Below are positions 251 to 38,320 of a stretch of DNA of 64,000 nucleotides, piece after piece. Numbering within the stretch: position 1 is the first letter of the stretch; every line of letters begins with the position of its first letter. Where the stretch lies: sequence record PV730302.1; one strand, given 5' to 3'. This DNA is from a phage. A program made the translations under genes and the position numbers. The notes beneath the pieces were generated by a model, which was not told where the DNA came from, searched no databases, and saw nothing but the letters and a program-made list of their open reading frames with translations.

Positions 251-277
251 AAACAAAAAAGGAGCCGAAGCTCCTTA
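251..277 (-). terminator. rho-independent terminator after gene 41
   Basis: Hairpin AAGGAGC-TTCG-GCTCCTT followed on the minus strand by a T-run (plus a-run 255-260); overlaps the gene 41 stop codon. Confidence 0.6.
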
Positions 278-1714
278 AAATTTGATAGATGCTGCTAAAT
301 CGTCCAAATCACTTCTATTAACACGTGTCTGTCGATTGACCTCGGCTTGACGATTCATCTCACCTGTAGCCTCACGAACAGTGTTCACTGGGCCTGGGTT
401 GGAATCATCTTCAACTTCGTACCAACGTTGATTTCCTTTCTTAACGCCAATCTTAAATTTGTTGTAGTAGCTCTTATCACCATAACGAGATTTAAGCTGC
501 TTAACCATCTGCATACCCATCTGAGCAAACTCTTCTGTCTCGACCACACCTAACATGAAGTCTGCAGTATGTGCAATACCAAAGGATTCAGCAATATCAG
601 CCATATCGATTTCGGCCGCAACGTTAGCACCACGAGTAGTCTGGGCTGCTGTCCACAACAATAATTTCTTCTCTACTGCAAGTCCACGTAGTTCTTCGGC
701 TACCATCTTAATCAATCCGTAACTGTTTTCAGAGAAAACTTTCGTACGAGAAGATGCACAGATGGCCAAGTAGTCGACGATAACGACCTGCGGGACAAAG
801 TTTTGTTTGAGCTTGTATTCGTTTAATAATGCACGGAAGGTATCGGCATTAGCACCACCGGTAGGATACTGTTTAATCTTTAATCGACCTAAAGTAGCAG
901 TTGAACGCCATTTATCCATCTTAGCTTTATATTCAGGCCAAGAGACGTGACCATCGTCAATATCGTCTAGTGATACATCCAGAAGGTTGGCATCGATACG
1001 CTTAGCACATACTTCCTCTGCCATCTCCATGGAGATATAAAGAACATCGTAACCAGATTGAAGGTAATCAGCAGCCAATGAACAAAGACCAAGAGACTTA
1101 CCTACGTTTGTTCCTGCCAACAATACGTTTTCAGTACCAAACTCAGCACCACCCTTGGTAATCTTATTCAGAATATTAAGACGGAATGGAACCTTACGTG
1201 CTTTATCGGAATAACTTTTGAATCGTTCTTCATAGTCATCCATCCAGTCATGACCTAATTCAGAATCGAAACAAATCGATAATGCATCACGCATGATATC
1301 CGGAATAGCACCAATACCTGGAAGTTTTCTATTTTGTTGCTCAACCGGAAGGTCGGCATTAGTTTGGATTTCAATGATTTTTGAAGTTGCATTATACATC
1401 GCTGCTTTCTGAACGTATTTCTCCGTCTCTTTAACCAACCATTCTTGGTCTTCAGGTCCGGCATTCAGCGAACTTAAAAGCTCTTTAGCGCCTTGATGTT
1501 CAACTTCTGAAAGCGTACTGTTATCTAATGCAATGCTCAGCGCGTTCTTAGAAGGCACTGCATTATATTCATTGACATGTTTTTTAATTTCTTTGAAAAG
1601 GGTCTTTGCCGGACCCTGGTCAAAATAAGAATCATTCATATAAGGCCAGACCTTAGTGAAATAATCACTATTGCCTAGCAGTTGAGCCAAAATAGTTTCT
1701 ACCACTTCCACCAC
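275..1714 (-). CDS. 41: replicative DNA helicase gp41 (DnaB family)
   Basis: 479 aa; N-terminus MVEVVETIL and Walker A GTNVGKS align with recalled T4 gp41 along the full length; GTG start codon at 1714-1712. Confidence 0.93.
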   Translation of the reverse strand: MVEVVETILAQLLGNSDYFTKVWPYMNDSYFDQGPAKTLFKEIKKHVNEYNAVPSKNALSIALDNSTLSEVEHQGAKELLSSLNAGPEDQEWLVKETEKYVQKAAMYNATSKIIEIQTNADLPVEQQNRKLPGIGAIPDIMRDALSICFDSELGHDWMDDYEERFKSYSDKARKVPFRLNILNKITKGGAEFGTENVLLAGTNVGKSLGLCSLAADYLQSGYDVLYISMEMAEEVCAKRIDANLLDVSLDDIDDGHVSWPEYKAKMDKWRSTATLGRLKIKQYPTGGANADTFRALLNEYKLKQNFVPQVVIVDYLAICASSRTKVFSENSYGLIKMVAEELRGLAVEKKLLLWTAAQTTRGANVAAEIDMADIAESFGIAHTADFMLGVVETEEFAQMGMQMVKQLKSRYGDKSYYNKFKIGVKKGNQRWYEVEDDSNPGPVNTVREATGEMNRQAEVNRQTRVNRSDLDDLAASIKF

Positions 1715-35540: not shown

Positions 35541-36113
35541 TCAACTCGTTATTTCTATCCAGTGCTTCCTGCACAATGACACGTAAGAATCGTTGCCACC
35601 TATAGAAACTTGGGCTCCGTCCTTAATTGCAATACCATCTTGGATACGAGCCGTCATAGTAGCTTTACGGCCGCAATGGCACACACCTTTGTACTCAACG
35701 AGTTTATCTGCTGTAGCGAGTAATTCAGCAGAGCCAGGAAACAGTTTACCCTGAAAATCAGTTCTTAGCCCATAGCACATAACTGGAACATTATAATTGT
35801 CTACTATCTTTGCCAGTTGTTTTATCTGTGCAGGTTCTAAGAACTGTGCTTCATCCACAAATACACAGTGGATATCTTTTTGAGATTCAGCCCAACGATA
35901 GAACTCGTATAGGTCCATATCCGGAGTCACGGCATTAGCCTCTTGACTAATCCCTATACGAGACGAAATGCTATGGCTTGATTCTCTATTGTCTATCGCA
36001 GGCTTTAAAAGGAGTACGCCCATACCGCGTTCTTTGTAGTTATGAGCCGCTGTTAGCAATGAAGCGGTCTTCCCAGAATTCATCGCCGCATAGTGAAAAT
36101 AAAGTTGAGCCAT
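35541..36113 (-). CDS. tk: thymidine kinase
   Basis: P-loop AAMNSGKT and C-terminal CxxC zinc ribbon; high similarity to recalled T4 Tk. Confidence 0.92.
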   Translation of the reverse strand: MAQLYFHYAAMNSGKTASLLTAAHNYKERGMGVLLLKPAIDNRESSHSISSRIGISQEANAVTPDMDLYEFYRWAESQKDIHCVFVDEAQFLEPAQIKQLAKIVDNYNVPVMCYGLRTDFQGKLFPGSAELLATADKLVEYKGVCHCGRKATMTARIQDGIAIKDGAQVSIGGNDSYVSLCRKHWIEITS

Positions 36114-36122
36114 ATTACCTTC

Positions 36123-36329
36123 TTAAAGACTATTTACATAAGCAATTAATTCATTTTCTTTCTCATCAAATCGATTAGCAAATTCTTCCAGATGGTCGGC
36201 ATCTATAGGGCCATATTCATCATAAAAAGAATTTGCTTCTGCATGCTCATCTAGAAGTTCATGGATAAGCTCAAACAATTTATCTTTCTGCTCTTTACTC
36301 AGACTCATAACCATTGTACCTTTAAGCAA
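36123..36329 (-). CDS. hypothetical acidic protein (68 aa)
   Basis: ORF. Confidence 0.4.
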   Translation of the reverse strand: MLKGTMVMSLSKEQKDKLFELIHELLDEHAEANSFYDEYGPIDADHLEEFANRFDEKENELIAYVNSL

Positions 36330-36517
36330 TATTCTTCAACATGCTGTTTGCGTTTATTTTTATCTATAAAAGTATATTCAACATATTCACCAATATACCA
36401 TTTATCGGTGTTATGTTGACTTTTTATAGGGCATTTAGTTACTCGGGTTTCGGACCAGTGTCGAATAATTTCCGCTTTATTTTTAGGGTCAAACGGATGC
36501 GGGTAATGGGCTTTCAT
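36305..36517 (-). CDS. hypothetical protein (70 aa)
   Basis: ORF. Confidence 0.4.
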   Translation of the reverse strand: MKAHYPHPFDPKNKAEIIRHWSETRVTKCPIKSQHNTDKWYIGEYVEYTFIDKNKRKQHVEEYCLKVQWL

Positions 36518-36956
36518 AATCTACCACCACTAAATTAATATCAGGAGTAAACAAATTAATCAATTGATAAACCTTGTCCCAATCACCACCAGCAATACCA
36601 CAACCGATGCGAGGGATATAAATTCTTGGTTTAAACAAAAGACCCTTTGCGGTACGGTTTAATTCTATCATACAGTTTACTAAAGCACCGTAATCAAGAT
36701 TAGGGCCCGGTTCGTATTGGGTGTATAAATTATAGCAAATTTGGCCCTTATTACCTGTGGCTTGAGTAAACGTGCCAAGTTTTTCCAAATGGCCTAAATA
36801 AGTGGTTTTATCGATAGCGAGAATAGGCGGATAAGCCTTAGCCAATTGCCCAGCTACACCTGAACCCATTGTATGGAAACAGTTACACCCGTGAGCAACA
36901 TTATTACCTTGAAGAAACAGGGCGACGATATCGCCCTTAATATAATCAATAATCAT
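36489..36956 (-). CDS. macrodomain protein (ADP-ribose-binding/processing fold)
   Basis: GDIVALF...NVAHGCNCFHTMGSGVAGQ and IYIPRIGCGIAGGDW match macrodomain signature blocks; ATG overlaps the upstream stop (ATGA). Confidence 0.7.
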   Translation of the reverse strand: MIIDYIKGDIVALFLQGNNVAHGCNCFHTMGSGVAGQLAKAYPPILAIDKTTYLGHLEKLGTFTQATGNKGQICYNLYTQYEPGPNLDYGALVNCMIELNRTAKGLLFKPRIYIPRIGCGIAGGDWDKVYQLINLFTPDINLVVVDYESPLPASV

Positions 36957-37309
36957 TTAGAGTTTAGTCCTCGGTTGTAAGAGTCAACGAGTCTGTCTAC
37001 CATAGACGCGCACATTTCTTTGTACTTTTTATCAGATGGAATACATTCAGTAACGTTTAGACGTTGCTCGTATCTTTTAGAAAGAGTTTTCTCTTTCATT
37101 CGGCGATGCTCTACGTCATTCTGGCCATCTTTAAAAGCAGCTGTGATTTTTGAACTGAATTCGATAATGCATTCAGTATTACTCGGATGACAATAATCTT
37201 TTGCTGTACGGGTAGCATACTCGACAATTGAATTATTACTATCATAAACTTGTGACGCTAATACTCCCGGAGCAATCAACATAAGCGCTATAGTCATCTG
37301 CTTAATCAT
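36953..37309 (-). CDS. secreted/periplasmic protein (118 aa)
   Basis: N-terminal signal peptide; four cysteines. Confidence 0.5.
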   Translation of the reverse strand: MIKQMTIALMLIAPGVLASQVYDSNNSIVEYATRTAKDYCHPSNTECIIEFSSKITAAFKDGQNDVEHRRMKEKTLSKRYEQRLNVTECIPSDKKYKEMCASMVDRLVDSYNRGLNSK

Positions 37310-37849
37310 TTAATATACCGCCTCAAACATCTTTTTAGATTTTAGATAATTGGCCTTTTCTAGAACTTCAGAAGCATATTTACTGCCTACTTTGACGTTC
37401 CAGCCCGCATTATAAGAAGCAATCGCTTTTCTCAGGTCACCTTTGTGAACATCAATCCAATAAGACAGTTCAATGTAGGCCCAAGAGGCACTGTTCTGTC
37501 GTTTTTGGACCATACGGATTATTTCTTTATCAGACATCTTCCAACCTACCTGTTGAACACGACTTCTTAACGTAGGCAAGTAATTTTGGAACATGCCATA
37601 AGCATGGTGCTTATCTTTATTTAAACCCTGATTAATTCCGGCGGATGATTCCTGCCATAGTAATCCGGCCATGATATATCCTAATCCTTTTTGATTAGGG
37701 TTTTCTTTGAACTTTCCCGACTTTTGGTATTGTTCACCGAAAGCATACGCATAATGTAAATTATCGAGTTGTTCATTACTGAAAGTAGGCTCTACGCTAT
37801 GGGCAGACATACTAACTGTCAATAGTAAAGTGGCTAATACTTTTTTCAT
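37310..37849 (-). CDS. secreted lytic-transglycosylase-like protein (SLT domain)
   Basis: Signal peptide; LLWQESSAG catalytic-Glu block and AYNAG motif. Confidence 0.5.
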   Translation of the reverse strand: MKKVLATLLLTVSMSAHSVEPTFSNEQLDNLHYAYAFGEQYQKSGKFKENPNQKGLGYIMAGLLWQESSAGINQGLNKDKHHAYGMFQNYLPTLRSRVQQVGWKMSDKEIIRMVQKRQNSASWAYIELSYWIDVHKGDLRKAIASYNAGWNVKVGSKYASEVLEKANYLKSKKMFEAVY

Positions 37850-37861
37850 GAGACCTCATTA

Positions 37862-38320
37862 TTAAAGATAGATTACTTTCGTGCTGGTTTTACCTTCTAA
37901 ACGTTTAGAGTTAACAAATGCCATACGACATTTAAGGGAATATCCTTTATCAGGATGCTTACGGTCTACTGTCATACCCAACCATAAGGTTTTATCGGTA
38001 ATTTCTAGACGCAATGGGCGATACACTTTACCAGGGACAATTTCGGATTCTACATCAGGCAGAGGTTCCTGGATTAAAAATTCATGGATTTCTTTAACAT
38101 GGTTATGGAGTTGCTTGAATAAAGCAAAAACGTATTTTTCGTCGATTTCACGTTGGATAGCACGGTCCAACAAGTGATTAGAGTACTTAATAAAGAAGGC
38201 TGGGACTCCGCTCTTGATGGCGGCTTTTTTGATGGACGTATTCAGTTCACGGAATTCGGTTTCGAACTGACGACGTAATTTATTGCGGCGGATGAATACT
38301 TCTGAATTAATTTCTGACAT
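37862..38320 (-). CDS. regB: endoribonuclease RegB
   Basis: 152 aa; EVFIRRNKLRR and HLLDRAIQREIDE blocks match recalled T4 RegB; leader carries GGAG SD. Confidence 0.8.
   Translation of the reverse strand: MSEINSEVFIRRNKLRRQFETEFRELNTSIKKAAIKSGVPAFFIKYSNHLLDRAIQREIDEKYVFALFKQLHNHVKEIHEFLIQEPLPDVESEIVPGKVYRPLRLEITDKTLWLGMTVDRKHPDKGYSLKCRMAFVNSKRLEGKTSTKVIYL

Follow-up and report, generated by a model that had tools for sequence, protein, structure and literature searches.

A T4-like phage of another genus carries an ortholog of the anti-DarTG2 macrodomain gene adfM (tk.4) with glutamine at the catalytic lysine position

Introduction

Phage T4 needs a small macrodomain protein to withstand the toxin–antitoxin defense system DarTG2, which modifies phage DNA by ADP-ribosylation of thymidines. 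When a T4 transposon library was screened on E. coli that expressed DarTG2, the sole significant hit was tk.4, and a clean tk.4 knock-out sensitised T4 to DarTG2, upon which the gene was renamed adfM, for anti-DarT factor Macrodomain; removal of adenosine diphosphate (ADP)-ribose from DNA by T4 AdfM is the authors' proposal, made by analogy only, and on plain K-12 the gene is dispensable (bioRxiv 10.1101/2025.11.20.689424, November 2025). A further anti-DarT factor had already been predicted because T4 without AdfA and AdfN stays resistant to DarTG2 (PMC11257639). Here we analyze a 64,000-nucleotide stretch of phage DNA (sequence record PV730302.1; hereafter the window) and identify a 155-residue macrodomain protein encoded on its minus strand as the ortholog of T4 Tk.4/AdfM.

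Macrodomains are commonplace in phages, occurring in 41% of myoviruses (PMC9503650). Within the ALC1/TARG1-like class, every member assayed (DarG, TARG1 and SCO6735) hydrolyses ADP-ribose linked to thymidine in DNA (PMC9411070; PMC12879935), and class members also hydrolyse uracil-linked ADP-ribose on RNA (PMC13036486), with human TARG1/OARD1 acting on both linkages (PMC12879935; PMC13036486). The SCO6735 enzyme loses activity upon mutation Q85A/E and nearly so upon N27S, and its proposed mechanism is lysine-independent, with the Gln and Asn residues placing the substrate and a backbone-held water serving as proton donor (PMC9411070). A second standalone phage macrodomain that counters DarTG2, PhiKZ gp104, bears the same name AdfM and has been shown biochemically to strip single-stranded DNA of its DarT2-made ADP-ribose, an activity impaired by mutation N23A (Cell Rep 2026, PMC13309987).

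Results and discussion

Full-length similarity and genomic position establish the 155-residue protein as an ortholog of T4 Tk.4/AdfM. Both proteins are 155 amino acids long and share 53% identity over 155/155 residues (E 9e-62), and tblastn comparison reveals a collinear region comprising rI.-1, tk, tk.2, tk.3, tk.4, vs, vs.1, regB, vs.3, vs.4, vs.7 and vs.8. In both phages the gene lies at an identical point, flanked by tk.3 on one side and vs on the other, and the two share the ATGA overlap, the AHGCNC and NLYTQ motifs and a hairpin in the 5′ coding region. The present phage differs from T4 in belonging to another genus (Dhakavirus-type), in having no tk.1 homolog between tk and adfM, where only tk.2 (DUF7438) and tk.3 (DUF7202) are found, and in the extent to which tk.3 overlaps the 3′ end of adfM (29 nucleotides, 36489..36517, compared to 4 nucleotides in T4). 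The anti-DarTG2 role is already published for the T4 ortholog and the present gene is the known adfM/tk.4; the locus documents that the gene for this anti-DarTG2 factor also occurs in T4-like phages beyond T4's own genus.

Profile searches agree with the macrodomain assignment made in a first-pass annotation of the DNA, which had described a 155-residue open reading frame with macrodomain signature blocks lying between tk and regB. The quoted blocks are all present in the translation (GDI at residues 8–10, NVAHGCNCFHTMGSGVAGQ at residues 19–37 and IYIPRIGCGIAGGDW at residues 112–126), and the flanking genes match their own Pfam families (Table 1). The protein matches Pfam Macro (PF01661) with E 1.3e-7 and 32 bits (gathering score, 22), over residues 22–132 and profile positions 2–117 of 118, and matches PHROG 335 with E 6.9e-67. 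Among 50,697 phage records, tblastn with the 155-residue protein located relatives in 2,732, with one place per record, and a homolog search returned 357 database clusters; given the Pfam, PHROG, tblastn and cluster matches, the macrodomain call is not a chance result. The protein conforms to a three-layer α/β/α macro fold with an ADP-ribose cleft formed from Gly-rich loops and a conserved Asn, and is the only macrodomain within the window. The surrounding 2.9 kilobases share 96–98% DNA identity with Shigella phage PSD9 and Escherichia phages WG01, IME08, JS10 and Bp7, and in such near-identical relatives the gene is labeled tk.4, "phosphatase", "hypothetical protein" or "macro domain protein". 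Recent horizontal acquisition of adfM was considered and rejected, as the G+C content of the gene (39.7%) matches that of the window (39.3%).

Comparison with macrodomains of known structure places the protein in the ALC1/TARG1-like class and not among MacroD, PARG or viral Mac1 proteins, an assignment made because its top relatives are Bt_1257, TARG1, SCO6735, Poa1p and DarG. The similarity ranking is led by Bt_1257 (18.2), followed by Poa1p (17.4), Mycobacterium tuberculosis DarG (17.0), TARG1 (16.2) and T. africanus DarTG (16.0), with coronavirus macrodomains next at 13.7 and below. A family profile searched against PDB sequences similarly recovered Bt_1257 (3e-21), TARG1 (7.5e-18), SCO6735 (2.6e-17) and Poa1p (1.9e-14), then DarG (2e-11 and 9e-10) and, further off, coronavirus Mac1 (4e-4).

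The active site combines residues conserved across the class with a glutamine at the position of the catalytic lysine. We aligned 115 family members of phage and metagenome origin with Bt_1257, two DarG macrodomains (M. tuberculosis and Thermus aquaticus) and PhiKZ gp104, and found H22, G23, N25, G33, A35, D49, G61, N76, Y78, Q80, P115, G118 and G120 to be invariant. All of these residues, including Q80, N25 and H22, are intact in 70 bacterial homologs. N25 falls in the Asn column of DarG, N23 of PhiKZ AdfM and N27 of SCO6735, where this Asn is catalytically important (PMC9411070; PMC13309987), and H22 corresponds to H24 of SCO6735 and H23 of yeast Poa1p. The Q80 column holds Lys in M. tuberculosis DarG, T. 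aquaticus DarG (K80) and PhiKZ AdfM, and Gln in Bt_1257, equivalent to Gln85 of SCO6735; in the profile alignment, TARG1 reads LITK (K84) and Bt_1257 reads MIGQ at this site. The diphosphate-binding loop P115–G124 aligns with PRIGCGLAGG of Bt_1257 and SCO6735 and with PRIGCGL of TARG1. The pairing of Gln in place of the catalytic Lys with a conserved Asn, both invariant, is the feature shared with the SCO6735/Bt_1257 subclass.

We conclude that the gene is the adfM of this phage, encoding a standalone ALC1/TARG1-class macrodomain that probably counters DarT2 by thymidine-ADP-ribose hydrolysis through a predicted Gln-type mechanism. The first-pass annotation had suggested reversal of DarT-type ADP-ribosylation, a reading now backed by the class assignment and by the requirement for the T4 ortholog against DarTG2 (10.1101/2025.11.20.689424). 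Because Q80, N25 and H22 are kept in an SCO6735-like site, we predict that the protein is a Gln-type thymidine-ADP-ribose glycohydrolase. In the proposed sequence of events, host DarT2 would ADP-ribosylate thymidines in TNTC motifs of single-stranded phage DNA and stall replication; AdfM would then bind the ADP-ribose in its glycine-rich cleft (G31-x-G33 and P115–G124) and hydrolyse the N-glycosidic bond between the ribose and thymine N3, freeing ADP-ribose and restoring the base. The chemistry would be lysine-independent as proposed for SCO6735, with an N25-held Q80 positioning the distal ribose and transition state and a backbone-held water taking the place of the DarG/TARG1 lysine. Both the Gln mechanism and enzymatic activity itself, for this protein as for any T4-type AdfM, are steps that we infer from these relatives.

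Several observations weigh against this assignment of function. The evidence from T4 is genetic and comes from a preprint, catalysis by T4-type AdfM is so far argued from assayed relatives, and the present protein shares only 53% identity with the T4 protein that has the knock-out phenotype. The features by which SCO6735 holds single-stranded DNA are absent: its DNA-contact residue K34 is S32 here and Ala in most family members, and the mobile loop that defines the SCO6735/Bt_1257 subclass, which is ~5 residues longer than in DarG and TARG1 and carries Lys89 and Lys93, is missing along with any equivalent of these two lysines. The loop from Q80 to Y89 has 8 residues (8 or 11 across the family), compared to 14 in Bt_1257, 10 in DarG and 8 in TARG1, and HMMER places a 6-residue insertion in Bt_1257. 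The protein is also mildly acidic and not electropositive, with an isoelectric point of 6.25 (family median 5.9) compared to 8.7 for Bt_1257. Finally, early expression of adfM is suggested only by packing with regB and by weak consensus promoter matches.

An acidic protein that has no Lys-rich DNA clamp could instead be chiefly a protein de-ADP-ribosylase, erasing mono-ADP-ribose (or RNAylation) installed on proteins of host or phage by phage Alt/ModA/ModB-type transferases or by host ADP-ribosyltransferase toxins, with protection from DarT2 as a secondary effect. T4-like phages are annotated as encoding Alt/ModA/ModB transferases, and SCO6735 and TARG1 also hydrolyse protein-linked ADP-ribose (PMC9411070). 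We nevertheless consider this alternative unlikely, as no protein substrate is known, the sole known phenotype of the ortholog is specific to DarTG2, tk.4 is dispensable on plain K-12, and DarG-type enzymes act only on DNA (PMC13309987). Protection may in part be non-enzymatic, because SCO6735 blocks DarT without catalysis: DarT is still inhibited in vitro by the dead mutants SCO6735 Q85A, DarG K80A and TARG1 K84A, with SCO6735 the strongest (PMC9411070), and AdfA-type phage factors work by DarT binding (PMC11257639). That DarT2 would be neutralised mainly by binding of the toxin or its product, through interaction-inhibition or sequestration and not turnover, has in our estimate a slim chance of being correct, since the C-terminal DarT-binding domain of DarG has no counterpart in the 155-residue protein when set against a 338-position DarG profile, and Q80, N25, H22 and the Gly loops are strictly invariant in phages and in bacteria without DarT neighbors, a pattern that favors catalysis.

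The only match of the protein in the PADLOC defense library and its only match in NCBIfam are both DarG, in favor of an anti-DarT function. Filing it as a DarG protein was rejected on three grounds: the catalytic Lys, the lack of a second domain and a score below the NCBIfam cut-off. The DarG macrodomains (T. aquaticus 5m31/5m3e and M. tuberculosis 5m3i) differ in having Lys80 where the present protein has Gln and in an FPTKxHWR motif that is absent here, and DarG carries the C-terminal DarT-binding domain that the 155-residue protein lacks. The NCBIfam DarG equivalog scores 20.1 bits against a cut-off of 250 and is matched over positions 12–138 of 338, and the PADLOC DarG profile is matched over positions 3–142 of 329. 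Searches by tblastn, a method of limited sensitivity, used DarT from three sources (P. aeruginosa, Thermus and 7yk3) and detected no DarT-like sequence within the window (best E 0.51) or near homologs at 159 loci (within 2.5 kilobases on either side of 79 viral loci and 4 kilobases on either side of 80 bacterial loci).

The two phage proteins named AdfM belong to separate macrodomain lineages, as PhiKZ gp104 shares 21% identity with the 155-residue protein (pairwise E 0.002) and is itself DarG-like with an FPTKxxWR motif. Gp104 is a true DarG-type protein, matching M. tuberculosis DarG with E 9e-25 and carrying the Lys motif FPTKDNWR, and is imported into the phage nucleus, in contrast to T4-type AdfM. 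Human TARG1 has a post-catalytic loop of the same length and differs in its catalytic dyad, Lys84/Asp125, at whose positions the present protein has Q80/A122.

Similarity to yeast Poa1p, an ADP-ribose-1″-phosphate phosphatase (6lfq), is concentrated in the first 45 residues and is the source of the database label "phosphatase", reflecting a real resemblance in the N-terminal motif that includes its His. Of the two positions mutated in Poa1p structures 6lfs and 6lft, H23 corresponds to the invariant H22, and S30 to T29 (Thr in 57% of the family). His in this column does not discriminate between families because SCO6735, Bt_1257 and TARG1 carry the same residue. The Poa1p substrate is a small molecule from tRNA splicing with no known counterpart in T4-type infection. 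Weak activity on ADP-ribose-1″-phosphate is common among macrodomains without being their role. A small-molecule enzyme, whether a Poa1p-like phosphatase, an O-acetyl-ADP-ribose deacetylase or a degrader of immune signals such as those of Thoeris, is thus a highly improbable identity for the protein, with no known source of ADP-ribose-1″-phosphate in T4-type infection and an ortholog phenotype specific to DarTG2. The first-pass annotation had also raised processing of ADP-ribose-derived signals, a suggestion that found no support, and Thoeris signal degradation was set aside since the only paper retrieved treats host ThsA macrodomains and not phage ones. Reversal of mRNA ADP-ribosylation by CmdT was likewise rejected, as the CmdTAC system still defends strongly against T4 despite its tk.4 gene (PMC11618068).

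Many bacterial genomes, among them those of Rhodobacterales, Hyphomicrobiaceae, Verrucomicrobia, Planctomycetota and Desulfobacterota, carry homologs with the HGCNC...NxYTQ signature as standalone genes with no DarT detected within 4 kilobases. In seven loci from Hyphomicrobiaceae and Jannaschia (L092, L100, L112, L115, L145, L148 and L152) the gene lies directly downstream of ileS, and in the sole Ruegeria locus scanned (L090) it lies downstream of rpoC. These contexts suggest that the bacterial family members, like SCO6735, serve in housekeeping or genome protection. A macrodomain–valyl-tRNA synthetase link was considered and rejected, as the bacterial neighbor, a class I aminoacyl-tRNA synthetase, is isoleucyl-tRNA synthetase by NCBIfam and not the valyl enzyme; we take the adjacency of family members to vs in the phage and to synthetase genes in bacteria as coincidence because the bacterial neighbor is isoleucyl-tRNA synthetase and, in other lineages, the upstream gene is rpoC or an unrelated one.

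The bacterial homologs keep the invariant residues, have no DarT nearby and sit in housekeeping-like contexts, which points to recruitment from a standalone family. We accordingly put forward, as a tentative proposal that we hold to be somewhat doubtful, that T4-type AdfM arose when a standalone ALC1-class macrodomain of the lysine-independent (Gln/Asn) type was recruited independently, and not by capture of a DarG. The set of features seen here, an SCO6735 active site with a loop of TARG1 length and a surface that is acidic and has no DNA clamp, may not have been described before. If the proposal is true, the name AdfM covers two unrelated enzymes, and the substrate range of the T4-type protein may be broader than that of DarG or differ from it, with uracil-ADP-ribose on RNA and protein ADP-ribose from phage Alt/Mod enzymes as candidate substrates; such a range could explain why thousands of phages keep the family, as do bacterial chromosomes at sites distant from any DarT. 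Three homologs depart from the usual architecture: P0094 and P0098, at ~245 residues, exceed the family norm in length, and P0114 (247 residues) has precomputed NUDIX (PF00293) and PF22327 domains beside its macrodomain-like region, a composition that suggests a putative fusion both releasing and degrading ADP-ribose.

Beyond the existing literature, the analysis adds a mechanistic point only, namely Gln and not Lys at the catalytic position of a protein that is not a DarG derivative. The residual novelty, read from sequence, is that T4-type AdfM would belong to the ALC1 class as a Gln-type protein with a short loop, sharing no descent with DarG or with the PhiKZ protein that bears its name; this is a mechanistic prediction and not a new kind of system. 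SCO6735, and not DarG, is accordingly the apt template for the biochemistry of T4 AdfM, with Q80 and N25 as informative mutants, and the name shared with PhiKZ gp104 masks two lineages. The data argue for correcting the labels "phosphatase" and "hypothetical protein" of tk.4 homologs, which are present in ~5% of phage records, and are usable for host-range prediction of therapeutic T4-like phages. AdfM, AdfA and AdfN together form a layered arsenal against DNA-ADP-ribosylating toxin–antitoxin defenses; T4 AdfA (61.2) and AdfN (30.3) have no match in the window, which begins inside an ortholog of the gene 41 helicase.

Table 1. Coordinates of adfM, its active-site codons and neighboring features in the window
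Feature	Coordinates	Strand	Details
adfM / tk.4 ortholog, standalone macrodomain protein, 155 residues	36489..36956	-	ATG-started open reading frame
H22-G23-C24-N25 codons (AHGCNC motif)	36882..36893	-	H22, G23 and N25 invariant in 97 phage/metagenome and 70 bacterial homologs
Q80 codon CAA	36717..36719	-	Gln in 115/115 family members, at catalytic Lys column
Glycine-rich diphosphate-binding loop, P115..G124 (PRIGCGIAGG)	36585..36611	-	P115, G118 and G120 invariant; A122, G123 and G124 at least 90%
ATGA overlap of vs stop and adfM start	36953..36956	-	TGA 36955..36953, ATG 36956..36954; same in T4
GAGGA Shine-Dalgarno-like motif	36972..36968	-	Upstream of adfM ATG
8-base-pair GC-rich hairpin AGGGCGAU-AUC-GUCGCCCU, then U-rich tract	36919..36937	-	Nucleotides +20..+38 of adfM; flagged terminator-like
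MotA-box middle-promoter-like motif TGCTTTA-N13-TAGAAT	36662..36687	-	Pattern search; inside adfM
vs ortholog (valyl-tRNA synthetase modifier)	36953..37309	-	PHROG 1256, E 3.8e-34; 46% identity to T4 Vs
vs.1	37310..37849	-	Weak SLT transglycosylase match, E 0.012
regB	37862..38320	-	Pfam REGB_T4, E 6.1e-69
tk.3	36123..36517 (region of tk.2 and tk.3)	-	Overlaps 3′ end of adfM
tk	35541..36113	-	Pfam TK, E 6.8e-57
Gene 41 helicase ortholog	275..1714	-	66% identity to T4 gp41

On the minus strand, the genes around adfM follow one another head to tail and with tight packing in the order regB-vs.1-vs-adfM-tk.3-tk.2-tk, and because of this packing adfM is likely co-transcribed with vs, vs.1 and the early gene regB. 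A scan of the window for consensus promoters gave no enrichment over shuffled sequences (11 found compared to 12.7 expected). The first-pass annotation had proposed translational coupling of adfM to an upstream gene for a secreted protein; the 4-nucleotide overlap between the two genes is real, and the identity given to the upstream gene needs correction, as this gene is vs, encoding a protein with a signal-peptide-like start. A Shine-Dalgarno-like motif precedes adfM, and vs-linked relatives share a GAGGA / TAA-ATG upstream context.

Vs and Vs.1 both have N-termini that resemble Sec signal peptides (MIKQMTIALMLIAPGVLAS; MKKVLATLLLTVSMSAHS), and the four Cys residues of Vs are conserved with T4 Vs. 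The textbook role of Vs is that of a cytoplasmic modifier of valyl-tRNA synthetase, and an exported Vs would fit oddly with such a role. According to the HIDEN-SEQ preprint, vs is conditionally essential in minimal medium.

Two further sequence elements lie within adfM. The MotA-like motif would, if functional, drive tk.3-tk.2-tk, an assignment that is uncertain since the motif is confounded by coding constraint (GAL..IEL). The pattern has 13 matches in the window compared to 3.1 expected, 10 of them on the minus strand, and of 81 related loci, 15 carry the site at this position, with T4 having the one-base variant CGCTTTA. The hairpin near the 5′ end of the gene has a folding free energy of about -13 kcal/mol and a minimum-free-energy z-score of -2.76. 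Eighteen distinct tk.4 genes encoding KGD[IL]VAL retain it (beside the window, in loci L001 (T4), L004-L011, L014, L016, L022-L026, L031 and L033), and their stem is upheld by codons that are otherwise rare, with GGC making up 22% of Gly codons, GTC 5% of Val codons and GCC 10% of Ala codons. In L014 and L016, compensatory changes on both sides of the stem put A-U in place of the outer G-C pair. Candidate roles for the hairpin are attenuation or termination between vs and adfM, or stabilization of the mRNA.
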